64,000 nt of DNA, from NCBI RefSeq assembly GCF_036588685.1, contig NC_086380.1, positions 10,469,347-10,533,346 on the forward strand. The letters are read 5' to 3'. Shown here piece by piece: positions 12,401-64,000 of this stretch. A program made the translations under genes and the position numbers. Numbering within the stretch: the first letter of the stretch is position 1; every line of letters begins with the position of its first letter. The notes beneath the pieces were generated by a model, which did no database searches, was not told the origin of the DNA, and saw only the letters and a list, made by a program, of their open reading frames with translations. This DNA is from Mytilus trossulus (Eukaryota).

Positions 12401-12479
12401 GAATTATTTCGATTCTAATAGGTCAAATACGGCAATTCTTTTGGATCGGAGCGCTCTAGGTGGAGGCATATATTTGCTG

Positions 12480-20300: not shown

Positions 20301-21555
20301 ACAAATAGATATATATTAACTAGTACATTGTGAAAGAAGGATTTATGATATAAGGTCATTTTTTTGGCCTCTTTAAATCGAAAATCAAGAAGTATTAAAA
20401 CTCTACCAAAAATGATTCACTTCAACACTTGTTAAAATTCTAGTCTGTCAAACATCAGTATTAATATTTAAATTTTTGTCAAACACATTTATATTTGTGC
20501 TTCAACTTGAGTTGACAAAATTGCAAAGATAGCCTCATTTCGAAATCATTTCGATATAATATTTGTATTAACCATGCTTTACCCAAACATTTATTTTGCT
20601 ACTAGGTGTATTTGACAAAGATGTTAATGTTTGTCAATATGTTTCTTGGTAAGAATTTGGCTCATATTCATTTTCTCCAAAATTTGTGTGCAAAATGGTC
20701 CTTTTATGTTAATTTCAATATGTTACTGACACTACAGTAACATCACATCTGCCCTGTCTTCTCTAAAGACTCATGATTATACATGTTATAGGAGCATGTT
20801 CATTGATCAATATAATTAACAGAATTTTTCAAGGCATTTATAATTTCTATTTTTAGAATTTCAGCTCTTATCATACATGTCATACTTTCTCCTCTTTAAA
20901 TGTGATTTCATGTAAATAACCAGTATATGTTAAATGGTCAATTTACAAAACAGTCTATACATTTCATATCAACTTGTATCAATTTTTCTGACACAGATGC
21001 TATTTTTACAATTAATGTCTTTTCCGTACAAATGTCTCTACAGTACAAATGATGTTTGAGGCATATATATTTGATAATCTAATACTTAATTGTTGAATGC
21101 ATACCACATAGAAAATTATTGTAAAAAAGCTTGTCCTCAAAAAATTATTTAAAAATTAATTTCTTTTGGACAATCAATGGCTTAAGTAATTTATAATTAA
21201 GATTGCAGTCAGCGTGATTACCATGTAAGAGGTTAAGACTCATTAAAGCATATTGTCAACAACAGTGTTGTCTTCTGCGATTTCAAGGAAGAGTTAGATT
21301 TCATTTTAAAATTACACAAGGAATTTACTTAAACAAAAGCTTGTATGACCATTTCGATCAGCTCTTATAGCTGACGAAAAGTTATAAAGAAATGGGCTGC
21401 ATTCAATGATATTTCTATTGTAAACAATGACTGTGTGTTTGTCATAACTAATGACATTAGTCGATTTGATGCAGTCTGAATGCAGCACTTGTTAAATTAT
21501 ACTCGTCAATCTGTACACCAATACGAAAATACTTTCTTGCTAAATATCTCTCAAC

Positions 21556-23379
21556 TTACATCTGATAAGCTGTTCCCAATAAAACAAAATGATATGCCTT
21601 TATATCTATATATCTAGCTTCTCCTGATTGAATGTAATCATTAACTGTTTCTGAAATTCTGTCTATACAATAACGACTTGATTTAAAGTCCTGTAGATGG
21701 TAACAACACAGAAAACGGAGGAAATGTGCAAATGGTAAGGGACTTATAAATACCGCAGTACCAAAGTCATGAGGAGACTTTAGTTCCATTGGGATGACTG
21801 AAACAAATATTATCCTGTTAAATGACACATATGTTGCTGGTAGTAGTGATATCAGCTTCAGTGTCTTTGTCTGTTTCATTGTAATTTTTGACAAAGAAAC
21901 TTCATCTGTACATTTTGACAAAGTGTAATTGATTATAAACATTGATGTTACATAATGTTTGTGACAATAGAAAAATGAAGCCAATTTCAGCCACCCTGAT
22001 CTTGAATCTGACTTTACACCAACCAACAACTGGCTGAGGTCATGTTTGTAGAATTTATGTTGCTGTTTATTGTTTGGGTTATTGATTTGTGGTAGCGTAA
22101 AAGGTATTGTTTGATATTCACTTGCAAAAGACAGTTGAAAGATACATCTGGATAATTCAGTTTTACAATGATGCAGCAAAGTGTTCAATAAGCCAAAGAT
22201 GTTTGAAATAGTTAAGTGTTTGAACATTGTCATTGCTTTCATTGATGTAGTTATTTCCCACATTGATCTTGCAGTTTCACATGGAAATCTTCTGTAATCA
22301 TGTAAAGTCTGAGATGATGAGAAAGCCTGAATTCCTTTTTGATATGATTGTTCTAGGAAATTGATTAATGCGTCCCGTTGTTTATTGTTAAACCTTAAAT
22401 AGAACAAGTTGTTATCAGGAATGAAATAATGTAACAATGTTGAATAATTACTCTATACAGTATAGTAACCTTTGTAAACAGGCCATAAAACAGGGAATGA
22501 TATTATCTGGTCTCCAGACTGATGTTTCATTTTCTTCTGACATCCAAAACATAAGGGTCTTCAAAAAGTATGAACACAATAAATCTTTTAAGTCTTCCCT
22601 TCCATGTAATATTTCTTTCAATAATATCTTCAAAGCATAGCATAGAAGCTGGGTATGACTGAAAGAATATATCAGTATATTCTCTGCAACAGAAAAAGAT
22701 ATTCGCCGCTGAAGATTCTCGTGTATAGATCCCTTGTTGCCAATTGGAACAAATAGAGTACCGCATGCAGTTATTTTTGAAATAAGTTCCGGTGAAGGCC
22801 ATATTAAACGTGGTCTTGATATCCATGGTTGTGCCTGCCATACCCACTGATCACATTTAAGGCAGATTGCAAAATCAATATAGTATCATCAATGTCCGAT
22901 AAGCATGGACCATGAAAATGCGTATTCCCTTTTGTCTTTGGAGATATTTCTTGCATTTTGTTTAATTTATGTGACTTGTAAAGCTCACTTGAAAGTAGGG
23001 TTTTCCCTCTGTGTTGTTGTAGCTGTTGTTTGAAGTGATTGTCTAAGTAATTAACATTGGTATATAATTGTAGTTGTGTAAAACACGGTGGTGTGTCCTC
23101 AGTATCCATTACTATAGCTATCCTTCTATCCTGGACAACATCTGTATCTGATATATATACTACATATGCAGGATCAATACACATAATATCAATATCACTA
23201 CCTTCAAGATCCAGTCCTTCTGCCTTACTTCCACTGCTTATATGAGGAATACTATTGCTCGACATTGTAAAATCTCTACTTATAGATGTCAATCGTCTAG
23301 CTCTTACAACTTTCTCTGATCCAATTTTCTGACACAAATGTTCATAAAACTGTAAGGATTCTGTTTTACTGTGAGACAT
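21556..23379 (-). pseudogene. Frameshifted paralogue of the cGLR-like gene (about 70% amino-acid identity in the N-terminal half), truncated at the C-terminus
   Basis: The N-terminal ORF 22804..23379 (MSHSKTESLQFYEHLCQKIGSEKVVRARRLTS...SGSKAEGLDLEGSDIDIMCI...) aligns with the intact gene and then diverges. The remaining homology is split over ORFs 22527..22847 (off frame), 22448..22633 and 21556..22437. A 4-nt insertion near 22447 turns CVEYSTLLHYFIP into CIE*. The stop falls about 30 codons early. Confidence 0.8.
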
Positions 23380-26300
23380 AGTCTTTAACTCTGTAGGGAT
23401 TCTAAATACTAGTAGTACAATGATGTTGCAATACCATCCAGAAATTTTTTCTCTTTTTCTTTGTGATGGTTTTTGGTTGATAATCCAGCTTCATTGTCTA
23501 GATTGTCTATTATCCTTGTAATGGTTTCTGGGTGGTACTGTATAATTGTCTAGATATTATCTCTAGCCTTGTACTGGTTTCTAGATGTTCCTGTCAAATT
23601 GGCCTATTCGTCCAATTTTTTATCTATTCTTTTACTGTTTTCTATATGGTACTGTATAGTTGTCTAGTTTGTCTATTGTCCTTGTAATGGTTTCTGGATG
23701 GTACTGTATAATTGCCAAGATATTCTCACTATCTGTGTGTTACTTTATAGATTTTTCTTGTTCAATATTTGCTCTTCTTTTCTTTTCTTCTACTGGTTAA
23801 TCTAAATGTTATGTAGTATTGTCTAGTTTGTCTTTAACTTTTGACAGGGTTTCTGGTTTCTGATACTGTATGATAGTTTATATATTTGTTTTAATGATTA
23901 GTGTTGGTTTTCTTATGACGTTCCTTTAAAATAAACAAAAGATTATCTGTTTAACATATTGTCTGAGATGAAAGTTGTGTAGTCAAAGTTTCAGCTGTCA
24001 ATTTCCCGTTTAAGACTTATCTAGCGAAGAGGTATGTGTCTGTCCCAAGTCAGGAGCCTGTTATTCAGTGGTTGTCGTTTGTTTATGTGTCACATATTTT
24101 GTTTTTTATTATTTTGTTATATAAATAAGGCCGTTTGTTTTCTCGTTTGAATTGTTTTACATCGTCATTTCGGGGCCTTTTATAGCTGACTATGCGGTAT
24201 GGGCTATGCTCATTGTTGAAGGCCGTACGGTGACCTATAGTTGTTAATTTCTGTTTCATTTTTGTCTCTCGTGGAGAGTTGTCTCATTGGCAATCATATT
24301 ACATCTTCTTTTTATATTATATCTTTTGATATATATTTTTATATATTTCTGATGTAACTGGCACATCTTCTTTTAATTATAAGATACATATCTATATTTC
24401 AACAACTTTTCCTTGTTGTATGTTTGATAAATTTCAGAGGGGGATCCAGATATTCTAAATAGAGGGGGCCACTGACTGTATAAGAGGGGCCCGTTTCAGT
24501 CATTCTTCTCTGATTCCCTATTTAATCAACATGTTCGCCACAAAAGGGGGAACCCGGGTCCCCTGTCCTCTATAAATCTGCCTCTGAATTTAGTATTTAA
24601 TGTACTGCTTTTCATAAAATTATATTTTAGAATGATTGGCAATGAGGATGTTTTTATAAGAAACTTTAACTTAGCCCGCATTTTCCAAACTTTGTTAATA
24701 AACAACTTAATGATATTTCCTCTTACAGAAGCTTCAACTAGGAAATATTTCTCTTTACTGAAACAAGAGGATATGATAAGTTCAGTTTCACATCTTCAAT
24801 GTAATCATTTTAAATGTGAAATATTTATATCAAATGATATTGATCAGGAAATATTGTATGATAAATGGAATGATACATTATTTATTTTATTATCCAGGCT
24901 ATAAGAACCCCATTGAAAATTGTTTTTTTATAGCTTCCGGGGGTTATCCTTTTGTTGAGGCATTATATGCATTGAGTCCGTGGCAACCATTGCACACAAT
25001 ATACATTCAGGTTGTATTCAACTAGGTTTCTGAATCTTTAAATTGTATGATTGTATAATGTATACGTTAGTATTAGATTAGATTTTATTTAAAGGTTTAC
25101 ACACCTTACATCTTATGTTTAACCTTTGAATACTAGTGGTTTTGCATATGCATTAAATAATTGCTAATGGGTTTTCAACAATCAATTAAAAGTACTGATA
25201 TAAGAATAGCAGATTCCTTGATATTATATGCAATTTCAAATTAAAAATTTCACACGACAGCAATTATGAATAAAACTAATATTTAATATCAAAATTTGTT
25301 AGATTTAGCCTTTTCTAAGGTTTCCAAAATCAAAAAGTTAAAGTTTCGGTATATGGAAGGAACACGACACACTGAGCTGTTTGAAGGTTCCCCTTTCTTA
25401 AAACTTGAAAGAATTTTTACAGCATCCAACAGTCTACCCTTTCTGAAAACAAAGTGGAGAACTTTCTGGAGCATTGGATAGAATCCTTTTCTGTCACCAA
25501 GTAAAACTTGCCGTATGGTGTTTCCTGTGCCTATTACTTCAACATGTCGTTAAGGTTTGTAATTAGGCCAGTTCAAAGAGAAACAAAATGGTCATTCAAT
25601 ATGCATTTGTATAAGCATTGACACATCTGATTTCCATGTAGATTATTTGGTCATATGCCCTTATTTATGATCTATTGACTTTGAAACCTTTGCATAGTTT
25701 ACATGTAAAGTTGTAGATTTAGGTCAGTTAAAGGGGAACTACTTATAATAAGTCAATAATACTTGGTATGCAGTTTTAATGGCATTAGTAAATGTTATAT
25801 CGCAAACAAAAATGTTGGCCCAGTTCCTTCAGTCATGGTTCATAGACTTAAAAGTACTAATATTTTTCATAATTAACATGTTAATGTTTTACCGTTTTAA
25901 ATTTCACCATCTAAATTTTACTATCAAATTACAAACTGACAAGACATATCTCTGTGTCCACAGTTTAATTTAAAGCATGTATAAAATGACTGATCTTTAT
26001 TTTCTGCATCAGTTATAATAAGCAAAATAAACCAAGTATTTTGTGCAAAAAGGCTTAGCAATATAATTAAAAATTCTCCCGAAGCACTTGACGTGTTGGC
26101 CAAGTCTTGTTGTAATTTGTTAAGAATTGTAAAAATCAAATCGTTTAGGCAACTTTAATGCAGAAATGTGTAATTATAAAGCCTTTCTACTAGGTAACAG
26201 TGTTTGCAAATGTTGTATTGGGCTAGTGGTTATAAACATGATGCATGATCCATGGAATTTCTGCATTTTTTATTTAAAAAATAGAATGCTGCTTTTTGTA

Positions 26301-35519: not shown

Positions 35520-35580
35520 GTGAGCTTTTCTCATCACTTGGCGTCCGTCGTCGTCGTCCGTCGTCGTCGTCCGTCGTCGT
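35520..35580. repeat. Microsatellite (GTCGTC/GTCCGTC)n
   Basis: gcgtccgtcgtcgtcgtccgtcgtcgtcgtccgtcgtcgtt, immediately 5' of the 490-bp satellite. Confidence 0.8.
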
Positions 35581-37560
35581 TAACTTTTACAAAAATCTTC
35601 TCCTCTGAAACTACTGGGCCAAATCAAACCAAACTTGGCCACAATCATCATTGGGGTATCTAGTTTAAAAAATGTGTGGCGTGACCTGGTCAACCAACCA
35701 AGATGGCCGCCACGGCTAAAAATAGAACATAGGGGTAAAATGCAGTTTTTGGCTTATAACTCAAAAACCAAAGCATTTAGAGCAAATCTGACATGGGATA
35801 AAAATGTTTATCAGGTCAAGATCTATCTGCCCTGAAATTTTCAGATGAATCGGTCAATAGGTTGTTGGGTTGCTGCCCCTGAATTGGTAATTTTGAAGAA
35901 ATTTTGCTGTTTTTGGTTATTATCTTGAATATTATTATAGTTAGAGATAAACTGTAAACAGCAATAATGTTCAGCAAAGTAAGATCTACAAATAAGTCAA
36001 CATGACCTAAATGGTCAGTTGACCCGTTTAGGAGTTATTGCCCTTTATAGTCAATTTTTAACCATTTTTCGTTAATTAAAGTAATCTTTTACAAAAATCT
36101 TCTCCTCTGAAACTACTTTGCCAAATTAATCCAAACTTGGCCACAATCATCTTTGGGGTATCTAGTTTAAAAAATGTGTGGCGTGACCTGGTCAACCAAC
36201 CATGATGGCCGCCACAGCTAAAAATAGAACAAAGGGGTAAAATGCAGTTTTTGGCTTATAACTCAAAAACCAAAGCATTTTGAGGAAATCTGACATGGGA
36301 TAAAAATGTTTATCAGGTCAAGATCTATCTGCCCTAAAATTTTCAGATGAATCGGTCAATCGGTTGTTGGGTTGCTGCCCCTGAACTGGTAATTTTGAGG
36401 AAATTTTGCTGTTTTTGGTTATTATCTTGAATATTATTATAGATAGAGATAAACTGTAAACAGCAATAATGTTCAGCAAAGTAAGATCTACAAATAAGTC
36501 AACATGACCAAAATGGTCAGTTGACCAGTTTAGGAGTTATTGCCCTTTATAGTCAATTTTTAACCATTTTTCGTAAATTAAAGTAATCTTTTACAAAAAT
36601 CTTCTCCTCTGAAACTACTTGGCCAAATTAATCCAAACTTGGCCACAATCATCTTTGGGGTATCTAGTTTAAAAAATGTGTGGCGTGACCTGGTCAACCA
36701 ACCAAGATGGCCGCCACCGCTAAAAATAGAACATAGGGGTAAAATGCAGTTTTTGGCTTATAACTCAAAAACCAAAGCATTTTGAGGAAATCTGACATGG
36801 GATAAAAATGTTTATCAGGTCAAGAACTATCTGCCCTCAAATTTTCAGATGAATCGGTCAATCGGTTGTTGGGTTGCTGTCCCTGAATTAGTAATTTTGA
36901 GGAAATTTTGCTGTTTTTGGTTATTATCTTGAATATTATTATAGATAGAGATAAATTGTAAACAGCAATAATGTTCAGCAAAGTAAGATCTACAAATAAG
37001 TCAACATGACCAAAATGGTCAGTTGACCCCTTTAGGAGTTATTGCCCTTTATAGTCAATCTTGAACCATTTTTCATAAATCTAAGTAATCTTTTACAAAA
37101 TCTCCACTGAAACTACTAGGCCACAATCATCTTTGGGGTATCTAGTTTGAAAAATGTGTATGATGACCTGGCCATTCAACCAAGATGGCCGCCACGGCTA
37201 AAAATAGAACATAGGGGTAAAATGCAGTTTTTTGCTTATAACTCAAAAACCAAAGCATTTAGAGCAAATCTGACATGGGATAAAAATGTTAATCAAGTCA
37301 ATATCTATCTGCCCTGAATTTTTCAGATGAATTGGACAACTGGTTGTTGGGTTGCTGCCCTCCAATTGGTAATTTTTAAAGAAATTTTGCCGTTTTTGGT
37401 TATCTTGAATACTATTATAGATAGCGATAAACTGTAAACAGCAATAATGTTCAGCAAAGTAAGATCTACAAATAAGTCAACATGACCTAAATGGTCAATT
37501 GGCCCCTTAAGGAGTTATTGCCCTTTATAGTCAATTTTTAACAATTTTCATTAATTTGGT
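35580..37560. repeat. Satellite with units of about 490 bp, roughly 4 copies
   Basis: Unit starts recur at about 35580, 36078, 36570 and 37060 (aatcttttacaaaaatcttctcctctgaaactact.ggccaaat.aa.ccaaacttggccacaatcatc.ttggggtatctagtttaaaaaatgtgtggcgtgacctggtcaaccaacca.gatggccgccac.gctaaaaatagaac...). The last unit has small deletions. The ORF 35635..35835 lies inside one unit and is probably spurious. Confidence 0.85.
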
Positions 37561-38072: not shown

Positions 38073-40606
38073 CTTTGCTTTATATATGGACCATAATTTG
38101 GTATTCGGCCTTTGGTTTCTTTTTGTATCCTTTTTTATAAGTTCTTTAATTTTAACTTTTATTTTGTGGGTTGTGTTGGTGTTAGAATAGTATGAATGGA
38201 AAAATTGAGTTTTTCGAGAAAAAATTTATACATTTTGATTCACCGTTTACGTGACATGAAACCAAACAGGAAACCAATCTTATTTTTCTTTATTTTGCAC
38301 AATATAATTCAAAAGGCATAAATAAACATCATTACTAGTGTAACTTGCTTCATGTTAATATTTAAAATCTATTTTCAATGTTATATTAAAGGTTTTTTTA
38401 AACCTGACAGGAAACCATAAGAAACCAAAAGCATTTTTTTAGTTTTATTTTATTGCAAAATCTGCTTAAAATAATCTGAACAGTATACTTTTTCTTAAAA
38501 TCCATCTTGAATGTAACAGTATTATAAAACTCCTAAATATGTGCTTGTTTTGAAAACAATTAGTACAATTTATTCAGAATTTTCCATATTTTCTTCATTG
38601 ATACAGGATACCATAATCGTTGTATCTTGATGTTTAAGCCAAAAAAATGTATTTATATTTGGTTTTGATATTCCAGTTATATACAATTTATTCCAAATCA
38701 TCATGATCATTGGCAATGTAACATTCTTTAAATCCAGTAAAGAAAAAAACTTTTAACTTGGAATTAAAATCTTTAAAATAGGCACAATGTGATACTTGTG
38801 ACCTGTACACTATCTACATGGTTTCCACATTTTAACCTACTTTAGTGGGCTAAAATCTATAAAGTACTTCCTTTCAAGTCATGCATGGTAAAAGTTTACT
38901 TCTCCTTTGACAAGTTTATTGCGTTTCTGATAAGTGTTTGCAGAACATGATTAAAAAATATTAATTAAAAACTGTGACAAAGATTCCAACTTTGTACATT
39001 CCAAGTGTAACGGTATATTAACATGTATTTTTTATTAAATCATATTTATTCACCTAAAATATCCAGTAATATTTACTGCTAAAATTAAATCTATCCAACG
39101 AGCATTGGTACAATGATAAGAGACGTAATTTGGATTGATTTTTCCAAGGACTCTTCACGTCATTATCGGGAAACGAAGTGTGTTCTAACGTCTGTCAAAT
39201 ATGAAATCGATTTTGTCAAGTCATTGGGCATTTATTTTCACACAGGATCGTATGTAACATTATGCACATAGGAAAAATAACAGACCACCGGCGCAATCTC
39301 TTTGACAATTGTATTTTCCTCTTTTAAACAAGACGAAACAAGTCTACAGATTATGTTTGCTAACATCCCGTTGGAAACAAAAACAATGTTTAGACCTAGT
39401 ATTTCGTACATCTGGCCGTAATGGCGTTATCACATGGAAGTCACATGTTTCACGTATGACCGGAAATGGTTATAACTTAAGGACAAAAACAATTTTAATA
39501 AATAACTGGACTTCTGTTTTGTGTGAAATGTAACGCATAACGACAACATAATTTTCTTACTTAATTATTACGAAGATCAAAACAAGAATGTAAATCATCT
39601 CGGATTTACCTGTTTGAACATCTCGCGAGAGTTCATATTTGCATATTGTTTTTAAGAATTCTATTACAACAAAGCAGATTACATCATTTAAAAATTGCGT
39701 TATGATATCGGACACAAAAATCACGCCACTGTTCTTCAAAATTGTTTTTGTCCTTAAGTTCTAATCATTTCCGGTCAAACGTGAAACATGTGACTAACAT
39801 GTGATCACGCCATTACAGCCCGACATACGATATACTAGTTCTAAACATTGTTTTTGTTTCCAACGGGATGTTAGCAAACATAATCTGTACACTTGTTTCG
39901 ACTTGTTTAAAAAAGGAAAATACAATTTTCAAAGAGATTGCGCCGGGGGTCTATTATTTTTCCTATGTGCATAATGTTACAAACGATCTTGTGTGAAAAT
40001 AAATGCCCAATGACTTGACAAAATCGATTTCAGATTTGACCGACGTTTAAACACACTACGTTTCCCAATAACGACGTAAAGGGTCCTTGGAAAATTCAAT
40101 CGAAATTACGTCTCTTATCATGGTGCCAATGTTCGTTGGATTGATTTTGCTTCAGCAGTAAATATTACTGGATATTTTAGGTGAATAAAGATAATTAAAT
40201 GAAAAATGCATGTTAATATACCGTTACACTTGGAATGTACAAAGTTGGTATCTTGTCAAAATTTTTTTTTTTTTTTTTTTATTCATGTTCTGCAAACACT
40301 TAAACTTGTCAAAGGAGAAGTAAACTTTTACCATGCATGACTTGAAAGGAAGTACTTTATTGATTTTAGCCCACTAAAGTAGGTTAAAATGTGGAAACCA
40401 TGTAGATGGTGTACAGGTCACAAATATCACATGATGCCTATTTTAAAGATTTTAATTCCAAGTTAAAAGTTTTTTTCTTAACTGGATTTAAAGAATTTTA
40501 CATTGCCAATGATTTGGAATAAATAAGAGTTAAAGTTTTAGAACTTATAAAAAAGGATACCAAAAGAAACCAAAGGCCGAATACCAAATTATGGTCCATA
40601 TGGGAA
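38073..40606. mobile_element. Large foldback / inverted-repeat structure of about 2.5 kb with roughly 870-bp arms
   Basis: Left arm 38073-38165 plus 38690-39500. The right arm 39740-40606 is its reverse complement; for example 38960-39480 matches 39760-40260, and the termini are atatggaccataatttggtattcggcctttggtttc and gaaaccaaaggccgaataccaaattatggtccatat. The spacer is about 240 bp (39500-39740). The left arm carries an extra roughly 525-bp segment (38165-38690) absent from the right arm. Confidence 0.8.
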
Positions 40607-41520: not shown

Positions 41521-41809
41521 GGTGTAAACATGTCGCATCCTAACTTGAGAACAACTTATCAAAATTTCATCAAACTTAATATAGTTGTTTCTTATGATGG
41601 TCAAACAATCTGTATACTTTTTGGTGAAAATTAGATTAAAACTTTTTGAGTTTTTACGGGACTTTGTAACTAAAACAGGGGTGTTTTTTTTCTCACAATA
41701 ATAATAAAATTTGTCTCACTGTATCTCAAAAACAGTTTATGATTATTGCTTAAAACTTTACAAACTTCTTAGTTGTATTAATCTTAAGATATAAAATTGA
41801 GAATGGAAA

Positions 41810-42300
41810 TGGGGAATGTGTCAAAGAGACAACAACCCAACCATAGAAAAAAAAACAACAGCAGAAGGTCACCAACAGGTCTTCAATGTAGCGAGAAATT
41901 CCCGCACCCAGAGGCGTCCTTCAGCTGGCCCCTAAACAAATATATACTAGTTCAGTGATAATGAACGCCATACTAATTTCCAAATTGTACACAAGAAACT
42001 AAAATAAAAATAATACAAGGCTAACAAAGGCCAGAGGCTCCTGACTTGGGACAGGCGCAAAAATGCCGCGTGGTTAAACATGTTTATGAGATCTCAACCC
42101 TCCCCCTAGCCAATGTAGAAAAGTAAATGCATAACAATATGCACATTTAAAATTCAGTTCAAGAGAAATCGAGTCTGATGTCAGAAGATGTCACAAAAGA
42201 AAATAAACAAAATGACAATAATACATAAATAACAACAGACTACTAGCAGTTAACTGACATGCCAGCTCTAGACTTCAATTTAACTGATTGAAAGATTATG
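41810..42300 (-). mobile_element. 5'-truncated copy of the retrotransposon 3' tail seen at 1040-1570 (SINE-like), sitting between about 150-bp direct repeats
   Basis: It is the reverse complement of 1080-1570, from ...gaatggaaatggggaatgtgtcaaagagacaacaacc... through ggctaacaaaggccagaggctcctgacttgggacagg.gcaaaaatg.cgc. Flanking direct repeats lie at 41590-41760 and 42310-42440 (ggtga..att..a.t.......ctgtatctca.aaac..tttatgattattgc.taaaact). Confidence 0.6.
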
Positions 42301-49681: not shown

Positions 49682-49789
49682 GTAAGTTTAAAAAAAGAAG
49701 TTAATTAAATGGGACAGTTGCTATTGGAAAGGTAACCTTACAAGAATTTTAAAAATCCACTACAAGGTAAGTAAAATGGAACTGGGAAA

Positions 49790-50083
<294 letters not shown>

Positions 50084-50326
50084 CAAGTTTTATAAAAACG
50101 AAGACACAATGCTAAGAGTCAGAACACCCTGTGATAGTTTGAATTATGGCACTGTGTCATTTTATATTATAGATACGTGCATGCCCTATTTATCTTTTAA
50201 AATTGCAAAGTTTGAGTGGGATGAACCTGAAATCATGAATGATATCATGATGTAAATATTGAGATTATATATAAATTTGTTGGTGAATGATCACAATGTT
50301 TTAACATTATATTTTTGTTTTTTCAG

Positions 50327-51432: not shown

Positions 51433-51699
51433 GTAAGTATTTAAGTTGCTAGGGACAACAAGTGCAGTAACTCTGCAAGAACAAAAACATCACAACCAGT
51501 TTTGTGGTTGTGTATCAGTAAAGTACAAATTACTAAGTAAAATATAAATACAAGGGTTATCAAAATGGAAACAGCACTTAAAATAATCTCTTGCAATTGG
51601 ATTTCTTATCAGGAGATCACTACAAAATCATAGACTACTCTGCACATACATGATTCTATATCTACTTGTTTTGTTATGACATTTAATGTAGTTCAATTA

Positions 51700-52255
51700 A
51701 TAAATAGAAAACACAAAATATTGATGAATAGAAAACACAAAATATTGATGAATAGAAAACACAAAATATTGATCAATAGAAAACACAAAACATTGATCAA
51801 TAGAAAACACAAAATATTGATCAATAGAAAACACAAAATATTGATCAATAGAAAACACAAAATATTGATCAATAGAAAACACAAAATATTGATCAATAGA
51901 AAACACAAAACATTGATCAATAGAAAACACAAAACATTGATCAATAGAAAACACAAAACATTGATCAATAGAAAACACAAAACATTGATCAATAGAAAAC
52001 ACAAAACATTGATCAATAGAAAACACAAAATATTGATCAATAGAAAACACAAAATATTGATCAATAGAAAACACAAAACATTGATCAATAGAAAACACAA
52101 AACCAATAGAAAACACAAAATATTGATCAATAGAAAACACAAAATATTGATCAATAGAAAACACAAAACATTGATCAATAGAAAACACAAAACATTGATC
52201 AATAGAAAACACAAAATATTGATCAATAGAAAACACAAAATATTGATCAATGAAA
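51700..52255. repeat. 24-bp minisatellite (aatagaaaacacaaaa[tc]attgatc) of about 23 units in intron 6
   Basis: Tandem units with an A/C and T/C polymorphic position. The NRKHKIL and FSIDQ ORFs are artefacts. Confidence 0.95.
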
Positions 52256-52880
52256 TACAGATTCTGAGAGTACTGTAAACCAACTAATATTTGCAGCTTT
52301 TGTGAGTAGAAAAATAACTTGAATATAAATCTTCCAAGAAAACTTATTTTTATTCAGGTAAACATAAATTGTTGGAAAAAATTTCCATCATGTAAATTGA
52401 GAATCTTGAAATTAAATCACAGCCAGATGAGCTAGAAAGGGCTAACCTAAAAAAGAGTATCCACAAAAATTAGTTGGTTTACAGTATTTGATCATTCGGT
52501 GATGGTGGTTAGTGAAGTTACAGTTACAGAAGCACTAAGACCTTGTTTTGACCTTAGCCAAAGTCAGATTTTTTTCTACAAAATTTCCAAATGTGTCTAG
52601 TGCTACCTAATTTGCTTTTGATCTATGGGTAACTTCTTCGCAGTACTGACAGTAGTTAAAAAAATTAATGCTCCCATCTGATTTTTAAGATTTATTTATT
52701 TGTTGTCCCAGAATTGCTGGACTGACAATTTAAAATTCTTCAAATTTCTTAAAGAAAATGCCAAATGTTTTGTCATGTTGAATATGCTTATTTGGGCGTT
52801 GTTTCAGAATCAACAAACCATCTCATAGTCTTGAAGATCTAGTATTATGTTTTCATAAATGCATTATTTTTATTTTGCAG

Positions 52881-55570: not shown

Positions 55571-56139
55571 CTCTAAACACTGATTGAGATTTGACCAATT
55601 TCACTTTGGTAGATCAAGAATGATCTCCTGCAATTTGTAGTGAAGTAGCTCTAATTTCTGGGGGAAAATGGTTTTCAAGCAGTTATATGAACTACACGTA
55701 ACTAATCAAGTAACAAAGCTCTCACAGCAACAGTTTTGAACTTTTTACTATTGCAGTGATTCAAATTATATCTCATTTCTTATATTATTTCATTATTATC
55801 TTCCTCAAATGCTAAATCATTTGATGTGAACACACTCACTGTATGGAAAAAAGTTAAATGACAAAATACCAAACTTTGATGACATATCAAAACAGAAAGT
55901 CCACTAAATCTAATGATTTATAGCTATCTAAACCTCTCACATAAAACTCTATTATATTGACAACAATGTGTTAACAAAAAAAAAAGATAAAAAAGTTTAA
56001 AATAGGGTTACAGCAAAAATCAATGTGTTAAAATCAAAAACACTTTAAACAAACAAAGAAAGTAAAAAAAATACATATAGACAAAGCACACTAGCATAAA
56101 CAAGAGACACAAATATAAAAAAAATGCTTAACACACTGA

Positions 56140-56290
56140 TGTAGGTGTGGTTTAATCTGTCCATAATAGCTTAGGCAGGGGAGGACTAAATTACATAACA
56201 CACTGATGTAGGTGTGGTTTGATCAGTCCATAATAGCTTGTCCCAGGAGAAGACAAAATATCATAACACACTGATATGGAACGCCGTAGC
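56140..56290. repeat. 77-bp satellite (two units) forming the short arm of an inverted pair with 62480-64000
   Basis: cacactgatgtaggtgtggtttgatc.gtccataatagcttgtcccaggagaagacaaaatatcataa, followed by the linker ggaacgccgtagctgcc (reverse complement of ggcagctacggcgttcc at 62502). Confidence 0.8.
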
Positions 56291-56560
56291 TGCCTTATGT
56301 GTACTTGTTTTTAGATACGCTTATACTTTTCAATATATGCACATAGTTTTTCTATATATGCACATACTTTTTCTCTATATGTACATAGTTTACTTTATAT
56401 GCACATAGTTTTTCTATATATGCACATAGTTTTTCTATATATGCAAATAGTTTTACTATATATGCACATACTTTTTCTCTATACGCACATACTTGTTCTC
56501 TATATGCACATAGTTTACTTTATATGCACATAGTTTTTCTCTATATGCACATCTGTTACT
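56290..56560. repeat. 22-bp minisatellite (tatatgcacatagtttttctc), inverted copy of 62200-62480
   Basis: Tandem units are visible. Confidence 0.85.
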
Positions 56561-57050
56561 TATTCGTTTTTAATGCGCGGAGTATACGTTGCACTAAATG
56601 AACTAAATCTTTTTTCAATTGTGTTCATGTCTCTGGTGGTAACAATGTGTTCTTACATATGAAATGACCCTATAAGCGTGATTGCAACCGTTCCAGTGCT
56701 CGGTTAATACCCTGTTACTTATTCACTTATAATACGTTTGTTGTATGTTGCACCTTTTAAAAAAAAAATCAATTGTGCCCATGTCTCTTGGTGTAACAAT
56801 GTGTTCTTAGAGATGAAATGACCCTATTAGCGCGCATGTACCCGTTCCAGCGCTCGGCTAATATCCTGTTACCAATTCGTTAATTATTCGTGTATAATAC
56901 ATTTTTTTATACGTTGCACCTGTTAGAAAAGGATTTTCAATTGTTTTCATGTCTCTGATGGTATAAACAATGTGTTCTTAAAGAGGTAATAACCCTATTA
57001 GCGCGTATGTACCTGTTTCCAGCGCTCGGCTAATACCCTCACTGTAAATA
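56560..57050. repeat. Tandem repeat of about 180 bp, roughly 2.7 units; inverted copies at 61750-62200 and a direct copy at 61190-61400
   Basis: Units such as caattgt...catgtctct.gtggtaacaatgtgttcttagagatgaaatgaccctattagcgcg.atgtacccgttccagcgctcggctaata.cctgttac..attcg... recur. Confidence 0.8.
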
Positions 57051-57560
57051 AAAGTGTTAAGAATCTGAACACTTTTTGAACACCCTTTTGTAACACTTCT
57101 GGAACGCGCAACAGTGTTCTAAATATTAACATTGGTGTTCCAGTTTTTAATAGTATGTGTGCATCTTTCGAACGCTATGTGTGTTATTCTTGAACGGATA
57201 GTGTGTACTCCTTGAACGCCGAGTGTTTGAATCTGGAACGCGTAACAGTGTTCTAAATATTAACTTTGGTGTTCCAGTTTTTAACATCATGTGTGCATCC
57301 TTCGAACGCTATGTGTTTTATTCTTGATCGGATAGTGTGTACTCCTTGAACGCCTAGTGTTTGAATCTGGAACATGACCTTGTGAGCAAAATTGTATGCC
57401 GTTACGCGTTCCAAGCCTTGTAACACTTCTGGAACGCTCGGACTGTGTTCCAGAAGTATGTGTTAATATCCAGAACACATAGTGTATACATATGCATGTA
57501 TTAGTGGAACACAATTTTACAATTTCCAGAAAAAAGTGTTCTATTCTCTGAAACATTATT
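57050..57560. repeat. Tandem repeat of about 125 bp rich in gaacgc/ggaacac/gttccag motifs; related blocks at 58960-59100, 60650-60790 and 60990-61190
   Basis: 57100-57230 and 57235-57360 are near-identical (ggaacgcg.aacagtgttctaaatattaac.ttggtgttccagtttttaa...gaacgctatgtgt.ttattcttga.cggatagtgtgtactccttgaacgcc.agtgtttgaatctggaac). Confidence 0.7.
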
Positions 57561-59211
57561 GTGGTCTTGTAAAACAAATAATTAAATTGATTAAAAACAT
57601 CTTTAATTGATTAAAAGAGGCAAAATTAAAAAAAAAAAGTACAATACAATGTGAAATATTGAAGCAACTTTAAAATGACAAGTTAGACAAATTAAAAATA
57701 TAACATTTGTAATCTGCAAAAATTAAATGTGTCCAAATATTTAACCATAAACAAATTGTTCGTCATATTTAAAATTAGTATGTAACAACAAAGTTTAGTG
57801 ACTTATGAACACAGTTTAACTCATCGTTTGCAACTTCTCAAGTCAAGCACTGTCCTGAATTACAAAATACTTATGTCAATGACTCGTTTATCACCAATAT
57901 TTTCGATGATCCACAGCTTTCATAGCACTCAGATGGTCAACATCAAACATAAAATACCCTGTGTATATGCTGCTACTAGTCGAGTCGGTGTTCATGTAAC
58001 ACTGCTACCTTAGGTAGTTTTGAACATGATTTGAGTCGTTTACAACTGATTTTGAGCTGCCATTTTTTTAGAACATTCGTCTTTTGAGCTTCCATTTTTT
58101 AGAACATTCGTCTCCTTGGGTTATAACTACTCTTTAACCTTGTTATCCATCAACTGTGAGTTCTAGAATATGAAATATAAAGTGTATGAGTAAACAAATT
58201 ATGGATCATGTCGATATTCCTTAAGAATTAGAATTAAACTCTTATTTCGTTTTTTAAATTCCATTATACTTGTCAGCATTATTAGATAAGATACATTTGT
58301 TAAAGAGTGGTATACATGCATTTTCAAGTATATGGGCTCTCGTGTTCTATAGCTTTTAAAAAAAGATGGTGGGAAGTGTCCAGCAAATGCTCATACAGTA
58401 GGTGTTTTAGGCAAAACGTTGTCGTTAGACTTGTCACTAAACTAACTGCTCACATTTCTAGAAACTAACTACCTTTTGCCTCTTTTTTTTTTAAGATATG
58501 TAGTAATTTCACTTATGATCTGTATACGGTAATTCCAATTTAAATTGATATTATTATATCGAATTTAGCTCAAATAGTTTTCTGATTATAATGTACACCA
58601 GTGAATGGTGCACATTTTATTGATAAATCTGCAATAACAAAACTTGTATTAGAAGTCAATGGGCACTCCTAAAATTCTTAAACTTACATATGAAAGTACT
58701 TTTATGGTGCAGGATAAGTAGTCATCTCTTGAACTGCGAAATTTTCTCTTCATTCTCGGCGAGGTATGCACGAACAATTACCCCTCCGTACTGTAGTTGT
58801 GTTTGTACCCTATAAAAGGAACATAAGAATACATAACAATACATGTATGAACGGTGGACATTTGCTAAAATGAATTACTAAGATTTAAGTATTTAAGAAT
58901 GAGAAAGCTATTAATATAACATATACATAAGAAATTTAAAATTAGTGTTGCAGTATGCCTTTTTACAAACTTCTGTCTTGACATTGGAACACATGGTGTT
59001 CAGAGAAAACGATTAGCTGGAACGTTTCATGTTCGAAACTAGAACACATTTACAATAGCAACGATATCATTAAACATTTACGTATAAATTTACATTGGTT
59101 ATTTTTTTTTATAGCATGATCATCTAAATATATTCTCTCAACGAACCTCCTACTTTTTAAATCGAATTATGGCATAACAGCACCGTTATGTGTTGACACA
59201 AAATGTTCTAC

Positions 59212-60543
59212 TTAAGAAATAATTCATGGGGGCTTGAATATATCGTGATTTTACCACGGGTTGGCCCTTTATGACAAATATTTTACCCTGAGCGATAGCG
59301 AGGGGTAAAATATCGGCATAAAGGGACAACCCGTGGTAAAATCTAGATATATTCAAGCCCCATGAATTATTTCGATTCTAATAGGACAAATACGGCAATT
59401 ATTTAGGATCGAAGCGCTCTAGGTGATGGCATTATTTGCCGTTCCAATATATAAACGCACTATTAAATTGACGTAAAATAACGGAGCAAACTGAATAAAT
59501 GTTGATGCTTAAACTATTTATAATAACATATTTAGATAATTTTAGATTAATCTAATTATTATTGTACTTATATGTCTCATATGTATACAAAAACTGCTAA
59601 TATAACTCATTTTAGCATCATTTGTTAACGTTTCCTTGTTGTGATGATTTTCCGTTTCACAGGCGTGTATTTTCCCGTAAATTGCTTATATTCTGACGTC
59701 ATTGTTCTATGACGTCGAGTCGCTCATTCATTAAAAAACATATGACGTGGGGGTACAATGGGAACAGCCCATGAAATATATTCATATTTTACCACGGGTG
59801 TGTACTCAAAGCGTTTGAAGGACGTCATGTTAGAATTCCATTTATACTTCAGTGTGTCCTGTGAAAGTAGAAATTTGTTGATTTAATACTAAAACAAAAT
59901 GTGTGAAAAATATAGATAATTCTAACATGACGTCCTTCAAACGCTTTGAGTACACACCCGTGGTAAAATATGAATATATTTCATGGGCTGTTCCCATTGT
60001 ACCCCCACGTCATATGTTTTTTAATGAATGAGCGACTCGACGTCATAGAACAATGACGTCAGAATATAAGCAATTTACGGGAAAATACACGCCTGTGAAA
60101 CGGAAAATCATCACAACAAGGAAACGTTAACAAATGATGCTAAAATGAGTTATATTAGCAGTTTTTGTATACATATGAGACATATAAGTACAATAATAAT
60201 TAGATTAATCTAAAATTATCTAAATATGTTATTATAAATAGTTTAAGCATCAACATTTATTCAGTTTGCTCCGTTATTTTACGTCAATTTAATAGTGCGT
60301 TTATATATTGGAACGGCAAATAATGCCATCACCTAGAGCGCTTCGATCCTAAATAATTGCCGTATTTGTCCTATTAGAATCGAAATAATTCATGGGGCTT
60401 GAATATATCTAGATTTTACCACGGGTTGTCCCTTTATGCCGATATTTTACCCCTCGCTATCGCTCAGGGTAAAATATTTGTCATAAAGGGCCAACCCGTG
60501 GTAAAATCACGATATATTCAAGCCCCCATGAATTATTTCTTAA
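59212..60543. mobile_element. Near-perfect 1.33-kb palindrome (foldback element): arms of about 625 bp, central loop of about 80 bp, TTAA at both extremities
   Basis: 59212-59838 is the reverse complement of 59918-60543. The outer end is ttaagaaataattcatgggggcttgaatatatcgtgattttaccacgggttggccc... and the inner end is ...catgttagaatt. The loop is ccatttatacttcagtgtgtcctgtgaaagtagaaatttgttgatttaatactaaaacaaaatgtgtgaaaaatatagat. Each arm also contains a subterminal hairpin (59225-59370). It is flanked by same-orientation repeat blocks (58960-59100 and 60650-60790). Confidence 0.9.
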
Positions 60544-61749
60544 TTAAACATAGCTATTAAATCAAGCTTTGCTGTAATTTTCTTCAGTGAAGCTTCTTCA
60601 ATCACGATCAAAAACCAAACTTCCGGTACATTAAATACGTCACGCGCTGTTATGTACGCGGGCATGTTTCGAACACATGGCGTTCGGGGGGAAATGGTAA
60701 ATTTGAACGCATCATGTTCGACGCCAGAACGCTTTTACAATAGCAACGTTTTCATGAGCATTTACACATTTACATTGTAAAAAAATATACCCAAAGAACT
60801 TAAGTCCTTTAGAAAGAAGATTTATACTAAAAATCAAGCATTTGCACGCTTATATAAATACGCTCTTTCATTTTTTTTTTACCAAACTATAATTTGCTTA
60901 TGTTGATACAGCTAAAATACATTTATCGTCAAATTATAGTGCGAATCACACTTATTCATCGTCTGTTTGACTCTGAAGCGATGAAATATTTTTTCACTCC
61001 CCATTACAATATTAGAACATTTCTAGTGTTCAATTTAGAACACTTGTCTTGAACATGTGCGTTCAAAGACTGAACAAAATGTGTTATATTCTTTAACGCT
61101 GGCGTTCAATGTGGAACACGAATGTTAATAACTGAACATATTGTGTTTAAAAATGGAACGCGTCTAGACGCGTCAGGCGTCCGCAATATTTGCAGTTACC
61201 TATCTGATACTTATTCGCCTATTATACGTTTGTTGTACGTTGCACCTTTTAGAAAAGGATTTTCAATTATGTTCATGTCTCAGGTGGTAACAATGTGTTC
61301 TTAGAGATGAAATAACCCTATTACTGCGTATGTACCCGTTCCAGCGCTCGGTTAATACCCTGTTACCTTTTCGTTACTTATTCGCTTATAATACGTTTGT
61401 AATACTTTTTATGTGTAGTGTAGTATGTTCAGACTTATTTTTGTTTGTACGTTTTGGATGATTTTGTTTAAATATTCCATCTGTAATGGCAGTGTAAACA
61501 TTCAGAGTTTGAATTTATTAGAATAGTAAATTTAACATTTAAGAGAAAGCTGTACTTGTCACAAAGCTGCCACCAAAAAATAGGGACATTGCTTTAATCT
61601 ACAATTTTCTATGACAATGATAAATGTTCATTAAGAAGAGCAAATTTTCGTCTTTTATTCATCATATTTGATTTTCAACCATATTTGTCAGGGTTCTCCA
61701 AGGAAAATATGTGCAAAAGCAGAAACATGTAAATACTTTAATTTTATAT

Positions 61750-62200
61750 AACAGGTAACAGGTTATTTACCGAGCGCTGGAACGGGTACATGCGTGCTAA
61801 TAGGGTAATTTCATCTCTTAGAAAACATTATTACCACCAGAGATATGAACTTAATTGAAAATCCTTTTCTAAAAGGTTCTACGTACAACAAACGTATTAT
61901 AAGTGAATAGGTAACAGGGTATTAACCGAGCGCTGGAACGGGTACATGCGCGCTAATAGGGTCATTTCATCTCTAGAACACATTGTTACACCAAGAGACA
62001 TGGGCACAATTGAATATTTTTTTTAAAAGGTGCAACGTACAACAAACGTATTATAAGTGAATAAGTTACAGGGTATTAATCGAGCACTGGAACGGTTGCA
62101 ATCGCGCTTATAGGGTCATTTCATCTGTAAGAACACATTGTTACCACCAGAGACATGACCACAATTGAAAAACGATTTAATTCAAAGTGCAACCGTATAC
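61750..62200. repeat. 180-bp tandem repeat, inverted relative to 56560-57050
   Basis: Reverse complement of the 56560-57050 units (ggtaacagg.tatt.accgagcgctggaacgggtacatgcg.gctaatagggt.atttcatctct.agaacacattgttacc). Confidence 0.8.
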
Positions 62201-62480
62201 TCCGCGCATTAAAACGAATAAGTAACAGATGTGCATATAGAGAAAAACTATGTGCATATAAAGTAAACTATGTGCATATAGAGAACAAGTATGTGCGTAT
62301 AGAGAAAAAGTATGTGCATATATAGTAAAACTATGTGCATATATAGAAAAACTATGTGCATATATAGAAAATCTATGTGCATATAAAGTAAAATATGTGC
62401 ATATAAAGTAAACTATGTGCATATAGAGAAAAAGTATGTGCATATATAGAAAAACTATGTGCATATATTGAAAAGTATAA
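62200..62480. repeat. 22-bp minisatellite (gtgcatatagagaaaaactatgt), same family as 1600-1860
   Basis: Tandem units. The ORF 62177..62662 is an artefact. Confidence 0.85.
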
Positions 62481-62519
62481 GTGTATCTAAAAAGTACACA
62501 TAAGGCAGCTACGGCGTTC

Positions 62520-64000
62520 CATACACTGATGTAGGTGTGGTTTGATCTCTCCATAATAGCTTGTCCCAGGAGAAGACAAAATATCATAACACACTGATGT
62601 AGGTGTGGTTTGATCAGTCCATAATAGCTTGTCCCAGGAGAAGACAAAATATCATAACACACTGATGTAGGTGTGGTTTGATCTGTCCATAATAGCTTGT
62701 CCCAGGAGAAGACAAAATATCATAACACACTGATGTAGGTGTGGTTTGATCTCTCCATAATAGCTTGTCCCAGCAGAAGACAAAATATCATAACACACTG
62801 ATGTAGGTGTGGTTTGATCAGTCCATAATAGCTTGTCCCAGGAGAAGACAAAATATCATAACACACTGATGTAGGTGTGGTTTGATCTCTCCATAATAGC
62901 TTGTCCCAGGAGAAGACAAAATATCATAACACATTGATGTAGGTGTGGTTTGATCTGTCCATAATTGCTTGTCCCAGGAGAAGACAAAATATCATAACAC
63001 ACTGATGTAGGTGTGGTTTGATCTCTCCATAATAGCTTGTCCCAGGAGAAGACAAAATATCATAACACACTGATGTAGGTGTGGTTTGATCTGTCCATAA
63101 TAGCTTGTCCCGGGAGAAGACAAAATTCCATAACACACTGATGTAGGTGTGGTTTGATCTGTCCATAATAGCTTGTCCCAGGAGAAGACAAAATATCATA
63201 ACACACTGATGTAGGTGTGGTTTGATCTGTCCATAATAGCTTGGCCAGGCGAAGTCAAATTTACATAACACACTGGTGTGGGTGTGGTTTGATCTGTTCA
63301 TAATAGCTTGTCCCAGGAGAAGACAAAATATCATAACACACTGATGTAGGTGTGGTTTGATCTGTCCATAATAGCTTGGCCAGGCGAAGACAAATTTACA
63401 TAACACACTGGTGTGGGTGTGGTTTGATGTGTTCATAGTAGCTTGTCCAAGGAGAAGACAAAATATCATAACACACTGATGTAGGTGTGGTTTGATCTGT
63501 CTATAATAGCTTGTCCCAGGAGAAGACAAAAAATCATAACACACTGATGTAGGTGTGGTTTGATCTGTCCATAATAGCTTGTCACAGGAGAAGACAAAAT
63601 ATCATAACACACTGATGTAGGTGTAGTTTGATCTGTCCATAATTGCTTGGCTGGAAAAAACAAAATAACATAACACACTGATGTAGGTGTGGTTTGATCT
63701 GTCCATAATAGCTTATCCCAGGAGAAGACAAAATATCATAACACACTGATGTAGGTGTGGTTTGATCTCTCCATAATAGCTTGTCCCAGGAGAAGACAAA
63801 ATATCATAACACACTGATGTAGGTGTGGTTTGATCTGTCCATAATAGCTTGTCCCAGGAGAAGACAAAATATCATAACACACTGATGTAGGTGTGGTTTG
63901 ATCTGTCCATAATAGTTTGTCCCAGGAGAAGACAAAAAAATCATAACACACTGATGTAGGTGTGGTTTGATCTCTCCATAATAGCTTGTCCCAGGAGAAC
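62520..64000. repeat. 77-bp satellite of about 19 units, running to the window end
   Basis: cacactgatgtaggtgtggtttgatctgtccataatagcttgtcccaggagaagacaaaatatcataa units, with a few variant units (gccaggcgaagtcaaatttacataa). The ORFs 62924..63951 are artefacts. Confidence 0.9.

Follow-up and report, generated by a model that had tools for sequence, protein, structure and literature searches.

A perfect 1.33-kb palindrome in mussel nuclear DNA is probably a tail-to-tail pair of a small non-coding mobile element

The 1.33-kb palindrome at positions 59212-60543 of the analysed window (that is, the whole 64,000-nucleotide stretch of DNA) is, on balance, best read as two whole and identical copies of a ~621-bp non-coding Mytilus element, arranged tail-to-tail in inverted orientation; the element normally occurs solo. 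In the sequences compared here, the mobile repeated unit is the arm itself, not the palindrome, and the palindrome is a tail-to-tail dimer of it, since the copies found elsewhere consist of one arm each, delimited by one common pair of discrete boundaries. A previous sequence-only reading of the same DNA had correctly recognised the palindrome as transposon-derived but had proposed that it was a foldback transposon, an assignment that we do not retain: the other copies (copy 2 in the window, and L001, L002 and L003 elsewhere) are single arms with the same two boundaries, and no tandem subrepeats were found.

The two arms (59212-59837 and 59918-60543) are reverse complements of each other with 0 mismatches over 626 nt in a base-by-base comparison about the centre at 59877.5, and complementarity is at chance level directly outside these limits; an inverted-repeat search gives the arm pair as 643 nt at 99%, extending a few bases further per side. 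The 1.33-kb palindrome with an 80-nt loop and no visible arm mismatch, as described from the letters alone, was thus reproduced. Both outer ends read TTAAGAAATAATTCATGGGGG, in agreement with the earlier observation that both extremities read TTAAG, and the 28-nt terminus has 4 matches in the window vs. 0.00 expected. The left arm (+ strand) is a complete copy of the unit in sense orientation (profile HMM positions 2-625 matched), with flanking TTA (59212-59214), the element proper (59215-59835) and then TTC (59836-59838); its boundaries are common to 4 solo copies. The right arm (- strand) is a second complete copy, in antisense orientation, with TAA at 59917-59919 and again at 60541-60543 on the + strand, i.e., TTA...TTA in unit orientation. 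Between the two non-hairpin ends lies the spacer (59838-59917), which is asymmetric, unique, 80 nt long and of 26% GC, and for which no homologue was found within the window or the fetched loci. Folded as single-stranded DNA, the whole arm reaches -118.9 kcal/mol (z = -11.4).

The second family member within the window (copy 2), found by self-BLAST of one arm, lies on the + strand in two parts: a 5' part at 12296-12493 (unit positions 1-244, lacking 47 nt of the hairpin through a deletion, and with TTA at 12296-12298) and a 3' part at 14535-14921 (unit positions ~240-626, ending ...GTTAGAA, with TTA at 14919-14921). It has the same inner limit as the palindrome arms (...ATGTTAGAATT). Between its two parts sits a nested transposon of 2,038 bp, which has made an 8-bp duplication of its own (GAAATAAA/GAAATGAA). 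The sequence-only reading was therefore right that the copy at 12299 belongs to the family but mistook a full unit with a nested 2,038-bp insertion for a half-copy. Further copies were reached via a proxy protein query, the stop-free frame across the hairpin, which led to three ENA contigs (L001, L002 and L003); each holds a lone unit whose outer and inner limits are those of the arms, and in L001 the inner end is followed by 1.5 kb of unrelated sequence. The suggestion that the TTAAG end is a genuine element boundary agrees with these data, the boundary being the same in the solo copies. Independent copies are 82-89% identical to one another, and ~8 unit copies in all underlie our statements about the family.

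To this we add the results for the opposite end, for which a profile of the frame leaving the non-hairpin terminus (...FTTG..KRLKDV[MI]LE) was searched against 1.84 billion representative ORFs. Twelve credible ORFs (from ENA, JGI and Logan assemblies) run through the terminus ...KRLKDV[MI]LE, each into a different tail; hence, the non-hairpin terminus is a genuine mobile-element end, since it abuts many different flanks across these 12 ORFs. None of the 12 reproduces the window's own junction of arm and spacer. Further, a JGI contig (L008), reached through ORF P0134, carries three family members, X, Y and Z, which are independent of one another because they are diverged. X and Y face each other tail-to-tail across 26 nt, like the arms in the window, and Y and Z meet head-to-head at a shared TTAA. 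This arrangement means that members of the family do land side by side in inverted orientation. No unit copies were present in the 96 kb of M. galloprovincialis sampled around Mab-21 paralogs. DNA pattern scans returned 0 matches, with two conserved blocks in metagenome contigs and one in viral contigs, using patterns that are too subfamily-specific; despite the 0 matches in metagenome contigs, ORFs related to the unit are present in the JGI data.

In order, the unit consists of TTA, A, the hairpin, G, ATTCTAATAGGAC, a ~435-nt core and a ~75-nt terminal block that ends GTCATGTTAGAA, usually followed by TTA. The element is ~621 bp long (626 nt including flank bases) and non-coding, its ends are TTAAGAAATAATTCATGG... 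at one side and ...GACGTCATGTTAGAA at the other, and its non-hairpin end reads ...GTTAGAA|TTA. The terminal hairpin noted before in each arm is present at 59216-59373 (+) in the left arm, where it is 158 nt long with half-arms (A and A') of ~72 nt and a 13-nt loop, and as a mirror copy at 60382-60539 (-) in the right arm. Adjoining the hairpin is the inner subterminal inverted repeat ATTCTAATAGGAC (59375-59387, +; mirror at 60368-60380), which pairs at 11/13 positions with the partner GTCATGTTAGAAT at the non-hairpin end (59824-59836, +; mirror at 59919-59931), so that the repeat closes the core. In a post hoc test with 2000 composition-preserving shuffles, a partner arose anywhere in 79/2000 and at this spot in 5/2000; the repeat is also kept in the mini-element L008-Y. 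The two true termini of the unit are not inverted repeats of each other (no TIRs).

Two kinds of short motif recur within the unit. The module ATTTTACCACGGGT occurs three times per unit in the orientation -> <- ->, at 59248-59261 (+), 59329-59342 (-) and, as the third module within the terminal block, 59786-59799 (+) in the left arm, with mirror copies at 59956-59969, 60413-60426 and 60494-60507 in the right arm; its 8 matches in the window all lie within unit copies (vs. 0.44 expected). The CRE-like palindromes reported earlier are real: each arm has one perfect TGACGTCA (59694-59701 and at 60054), and each unit copy has four ATGACGT half-sites, clustered at 59694-59828 with a mirror cluster at 59927-60061. 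The window has 18 matches to ATGACGT (5.2 expected), 12 of them within unit copies, and the CRE-like sites are conserved in 4/5 copies. No ORF of note and no Pfam domain was found in or around the element, the Pfam search having covered all stop-free segments around it as well as L001 and L003, and TRF (minimum score 30) reported no tandem subrepeats at 59200-60560. Rfam gave sub-threshold matches only, to models of plant miRNA precursors, as any long hairpin generally does. Conservation among copies is high at the ends of the unit and lower in the middle, as would be usual for a non-autonomous element that depends on its ends for mobilisation.

The terminal hairpin is also a conserved structure, maintained via compensatory changes. 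The hairpins of the L008 relatives differ greatly in sequence from that of the window, and an alignment fold of the window hairpin with those of L008-Y and L008-Z keeps 64 pairs; in 19/64, both sides have changed and the pairing is retained. The right half-hairpin of L003 has the left-arm state at 4/4 sites that distinguish A from A', together with a private change common to the remnant of its own left arm. It follows that the hairpin undergoes flip-flop inversion or arm-to-arm copying.

The bases flanking the unit differ between its two ends. Given in unit orientation (5'/3'), the flanks are TTA/TTC for the left arm, TTA/TTA for the right arm, copy 2, L003 and L008-Y, TTA/TAT for L001 and TTA/TGT for L008-Z, that is, TTA in 7/7 copies with both ends known on the 5' side and in 4/7 on the 3' side; in L002 and L008-X, the 3' side is TAA and TAT, respectively. 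Solo units have TTAA, TTAA or TTAG at the hairpin end and TTAG, TATA, TAAT or TTAT at the opposite end. The non-hairpin end never has TTAA, the next bases being TTA, TTC, TAT, TAA or TGT, and the codon following ...GAA in the 12 ORFs is Leu in 5, Phe in 2 and Trp, Cys, Tyr, His or Ser in 1 each (T-initial in 10/12). TT stands both before and after the unit in 4/6 DNA-level copies, which fits insertion into oligo-T or a TTA duplication. The pattern as a whole would fit a 3-bp duplication of TTA, partly lost by decay in copies that are ~7% from the consensus; given the invariant 5' TTA, however, TTA might instead be a fixed target or sequence internal to the element. The piggyBac-type TTAA target suggested previously is not consistent with these flanks, TTAA/TTA being confined to the hairpin end and the ends not being CCC...GGG.

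No empty site was recovered from the window's own segmental duplication, from L004 or from homology searches with the spacer and flanks. The window segments that might hold the paralogous empty site of copy 2 are only ~70% identical and the interval is not alignable, and L004, from M. galloprovincialis, is paralogous (~80% identical), not orthologous, and therefore offers no empty site. The spacer and the flanks are both unique, the single match being a 115-bp direct repeat (75%) located 115-125 bp outside each end of the palindrome, and this repeat is not a target duplication.

As to how the pair arose, the arm is 7.2% diverged from a five-copy consensus and carries 24 private substitutions (4.2%; other copies have 19-32), and all 24 are common to both arms, with no difference at any of them. 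Hence, either one arm was recently copied from the other or the arms have been homogenised. Two old insertions that simply stayed intact are excluded by identical arms with 24 private substitutions in common, and the same substitutions exclude two fresh copies of a consensus master. The most likely route to the second arm, which we hold with a confidence a little short of even, is re-insertion (transposition) beside the donor: the resident, aged left arm would have given rise to a copy that inserted, oppositely oriented, at a distance of 80 bp from the donor's non-hairpin end, and such mobilisation would need an enzyme provided in trans by an autonomous partner element. This is the simplest reading because the arm limits are the unit ends and the flanks are TTA/TTA for the right arm and TTA/TTC for the left; that is, we propose that the flanks differ in this way because the right arm is the re-inserted copy. 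Counting against it, termini that are not inverted repeats are unexpected for a cut-and-paste element making a TTA duplication. Further, recent mobilisation of an element 7% from its consensus needs a partner that is still active or a diverged active sublineage.

Alternatively, two independent old insertions, 80 bp apart and inverted, might have been homogenised later by intrachromosomal gene conversion. This is the main alternative, which we consider rather unlikely, and it would give the same picture as re-insertion: identity would end, as it does, precisely where homology ends, at the unit boundaries, and the arm sequence matches the other copies in age. The independent, diverged members of L008 do adjoin in inverted orientation, and the L003 hairpin offers a precedent for arm-to-arm copying on a smaller scale. 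However, the conversion tract must span the full 626 bp without a trace of mosaicism, all indels and the deletion-prone hairpin included, and two insertions within 80 bp are a priori rare unless self-targeted (cf. 0 copies in 96 kb of the sister species). The possibility that the whole 1.33-kb palindrome is a single foldback-type transposon with 626-bp TIRs that duplicates TTAA (piggyBac-like or Kolobok-like), with the single arms as its decayed halves, seems very unlikely to us. It is true that TTAA abuts both outer ends, that the composite has perfect inverted termini, each with ATTTTACCACGGGT modules, and that L008 members meet head-to-head at TTAA. Yet 4/4 other loci hold single units with one identical inner boundary, which random decay would not yield, and the 12 further ORF-level junctions leave the same boundary into unrelated DNA. 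The ends of the solo units (TTAA, TTAA or TTAG at the hairpin and never TTAA opposite), together with the lack of CCC/GGG termini and of subrepeats, argue against it as well.

Two further explanations dispense with transposition of the second arm or with the palindrome itself. A replication error, by fold-back or template switching at a stalled fork near a hairpin-rich element, would account for identical arms with their private substitutions in common, and the element is indeed rich in secondary structure (the z-score given above); but both breakpoints must then match the ends of a mobile unit to within 1-3 nt, fold-back normally leaves a short turnaround loop where this pair has an asymmetric spacer of 80 nt, and the flanks of the right arm match each other as TTA/TTA, so that we find this explanation more improbable still. 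Least probable of all is an assembly or sequencing artefact, i.e., a chimeric palindromic read or a heterozygous inversion collapsed to a palindrome. Perfect palindromes are a known failure mode, but long reads far exceed the 1.33 kb of this one, which ends just where the biological element ends, and its spacer is ordinary AT-rich unique DNA that has at most a 7-mer in common with the SMRTbell adapter. An analogous inverted adjacency in an unrelated contig from another project (L008) likewise speaks against an artefact.

With respect to known systems, the most fitting description of the unit is a non-autonomous, unclassified DNA element that resembles a PIF-like or a Helentron-like layout, fits neither fully, and may already be named in Dfam or Repbase. 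Like a PIF/Harbinger (Tourist-like) MITE, it is small and non-autonomous, with TTA flanks, conserved ends and a variable middle, and a 3-bp TWA duplication is typical of that superfamily. In contrast to such elements, its termini (AGAAATAATTC... and ...CATGTTAGAA) are not inverted repeats and its 5' TTA is invariant. A comparison of the 5' end (AGAAATAATTCATGG) with the reverse-complemented 3' end (TTCTAACATGACG) gave no in-register alignment that would represent a PIF/Harbinger TIR (at least ~14 bp), and no TAA-flanked copy with both ends was seen. HINEs (DINE-1, oyster Cg_HINE) are abundant in bivalves, insert into TT or oligo-T and make no target duplication, and their autonomous partners, which have the same ends, encode a Rep/helicase-endonuclease (PMC4067079, PMC7492417), and their palindrome has a 5-10 bp stem and lies at the 3' end of the strand with T flanks (PMC4067079). 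The mussel unit is similar to HINE/Helentron elements in being non-coding, in having no true TIRs, in its T-rich flanks and in an 11-13-nt subterminal inverted repeat, of which one copy is at a terminus and the other just inside a terminal palindrome (ATTCTAATAGGAC and GTCATMTTAGAAT pair at 11/13 positions). It differs from them in that its stem is ~72 bp, not 5-10 bp, which makes the palindrome roughly ten times as long, and stands at the 5' end of the T-rich strand, not the 3' end; the TTA repeat flanks 4/7 copies, and there is no microsatellite or central tandem repeat.

Other classes fit less well. Canonical Helitrons begin with 5'-TC, end with CTRR-3' preceded by a 16-20-nt hairpin ~11 nt from the 3' end, and insert between A and T. 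The mussel unit reads TC...CTRR in neither orientation, and this class is rejected; its A|...|T flanks are compatible with such an insertion but follow trivially from TTA. A piggyBac-like or other TTAA-duplicating element is suggested by TTAA abutting both outer ends of the palindrome, where a test on the dimer cannot separate TTAA from the arm; solo units, however, have TTAA at one end only, their termini are (TTA)AGAAAT... and ...GTTAGAA, and no transposase was found. A piggyBac-type mechanism for the unit is rejected because TTAA is never at the non-hairpin end, and piggyBac membership is further contradicted by the lack of CCC...GGG and of any ORF or Pfam match, since piggyBac TIRs start with CCC and finish with GGG and the autonomous copies encode a DDE transposase. 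The FB elements of Drosophila consist of a long inverted repeat, are non-coding and capable of snap-back, and have arms of short tandem subrepeats and an 8-9-bp duplication. The mussel palindrome is likewise non-coding, could snap back into a hairpin and is nearly all long inverted repeat (arms of 626 nt, spacer of 80 nt), but its arms are without tandem subrepeats, the other copies are single arms, and no 8-9-bp duplication flanks it. An FB-like element, Tetris, is also cited in PMC7492417.

We also considered a tRNA-derived SINE (rejected, there being no tRNA in the window), LINE-type retroposition (rejected, with no long variable duplications and no tail repeats) and a parvovirus-like ITR (dropped, since the hairpin end is flanked by host DNA at many loci and no viral contig matched). 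Maize Mu killer offers a likeness of a different kind, as a transposon duplicated in inverted orientation at one locus; if the mussel pair is transcribed, a hairpin RNA against its own family is possible. Mu killer arose by a rearrangement that included flanking DNA, whereas the mussel arms are exactly whole elements.

It is also conceivable, and in our view quite unlikely, that the unit belongs to an undescribed class of hairpin-dependent eukaryotic transposons (single-strand/HUH-like or recombinase-driven). Features that would point in this direction are the invariant TTA(A) on the hairpin side, the lack of TIRs and the ATTTTACCACGGGT modules in direct orientation at both ends. The ~72-bp-stem hairpin kept by compensatory change with flip-flop, the subterminal repeat folding the core into a second stem, and a tendency to insert, inverted, at or beside the ends of resident copies would point the same way. 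If such a class exists, perfect palindromes would be a regular by-product of its insertion mechanism. The chance that the family uses an unusual hairpin-dependent mechanism, slight as it is, would deserve genome-wide study; if self-adjacent inverted insertion and an unusual partner enzyme were confirmed, transposon biologists would have good reason to take an interest in the family.

The palindrome is an ordinary kind of repeat-derived structure, and it illustrates how, in a bivalve genome rich in repeats, a small mobile element present twice can produce a perfect palindrome without any dedicated foldback transposon. For annotation, the consensus is the 621-bp unit and not the 1.33-kb palindrome; for assembly quality control, the palindrome has biological boundaries. 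As for genome stability, a repeat of this kind, inverted, perfect over 626 bp and interrupted by a spacer of 80 nt, is a potential fragile site that could form cruciforms and give rise to hairpin RNA.

Finally, the palindrome is nested within an older element of 6,247 bp (56276-62522) that has ~765-bp TIRs (88.8% identical), 21-bp tandem subrepeats and a perfect 8-bp target duplication (ACACTGAT), and that itself interrupts a 68-bp satellite. A larger, ancient palindrome centred on the spacer was considered and rejected, the outer inverted repeats being those of this separate 6.25-kb element with its own 8-bp duplication; since the two centres lie 486 bp apart, the palindrome is nested in the element as a feature of its own and does not form the core of a larger palindrome. 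Unlike the palindrome, the enclosing element looks FB-like in its 765-bp TIRs, 21-bp subrepeats and 8-bp target-site duplication. More generally, the window is of 30-38% GC, without tRNA genes and with many satellite-like arrays, and one of its ORFs, which is Mab-21/cGAS-like, matches Mytilus trossulus LOC134681645 at 100% identity; this identifies the window as mussel nuclear DNA.

The palindrome (59212-60543), a tail-to-tail pair of the non-coding units, sits nested inside a larger non-coding element of 6,247 bp (56276-62522), and within the window it is this enclosing element that is classically foldback-like. Its terminal inverted repeats (TIRs) are ~765 bp long and 88.8% identical; within them lie subrepeats 21 bp in length, arrayed in tandem (56327-56552 and 62229-62474), as well as 154-bp repeats (61755-62171). 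The insertion site is a 68-bp satellite (56119-56275, and again from 62523 to the end of the window), with a perfect 8-bp target duplication, ACACTGAT, at 56268-56275 and 62523-62530. Closer to the palindrome, a 115-bp direct repeat, 75% identical between its copies (58984-59097 and 60668-60777), has its copies standing 115-125 bp beyond each palindrome end rather than abutting it, and is therefore not a target duplication.

Copy 2, the complete unit that lies apart from the palindrome in the window, is interrupted by a 2,038-bp insertion (12494-14531), which represents a second foldback-like family. The TIRs of this insertion start with GGTTACACGCC and GGTGACATCCC, are built from ~17-bp tandem subrepeats (GGGCTGTCGGAATAATG-like), and are surrounded by an 8-bp duplication, GAAATAAA / GAAATGAA (12486-12493 and 14532-14539). 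About 800 bp past this interrupted unit, where the sequence gives no match to the unit profile, there is an additional TGACGTCA together with two paired ATGACGT half-sites (15693-15715).

Among the relatives of the unit elsewhere, the terminal hairpin of the solo copy on ENA contig L003 (2395-2505) is "flipped". The right half of this hairpin agrees with the A-type (left-arm) state at each of the four diagnostic sites, and it has a private T>G change in common with a 23-nt remnant of the left half, which together indicate flip-flop inversion or arm-to-arm copying. JGI contig L008 holds a tight cluster of three diverged members of the family (1049-1836). A gap of 26 nt separates the 3' terminus of X (1051-1110, sense) from Y (1137-1344, antisense). 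Y is a mini-element of 215 bp, consisting of the hairpin and a 45-nt core, and it joins Z (about 1347-1836, sense) head-to-head with a TTAA common to both.

Another large snap-back structure, unrelated in sequence to the palindrome, is found at 38706-40513, with inner arms of 543 nt (38954-39496 / 39738-40280; 90%) and outer arms of 213 nt (38706-38918 / 40301-40513; 97%). Across 40 kb, 1267-1574 pairs with 41789-42108 through three adjacent blocks of inverted repeat, each of them 90-114 nt long and 93-97% complementary; the two regions are probably oppositely oriented copies of another interspersed repeat.

The window also contains tandem arrays, namely an 8-bp microsatellite-like array (49718-50100), a 24-bp array (51600-52337) whose 200-aa ORF is spurious and matches Pfam (Fibrinogen_BP) below threshold, and four copies of a 502-bp repeat (35579-37557). 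Finally, two Mab-21 / cGAS-like receptor paralogs (7493-9622 and 21463-23602) share ~78% DNA identity at a spacing of ~14 kb, the second seemingly broken up into two ORFs (21556-22437 and 22804-23379). An old segmental duplication is indicated by the 53-bp satellite arrays, which are collinear (16.6-17.6 kb and 26.8-28.4 kb).
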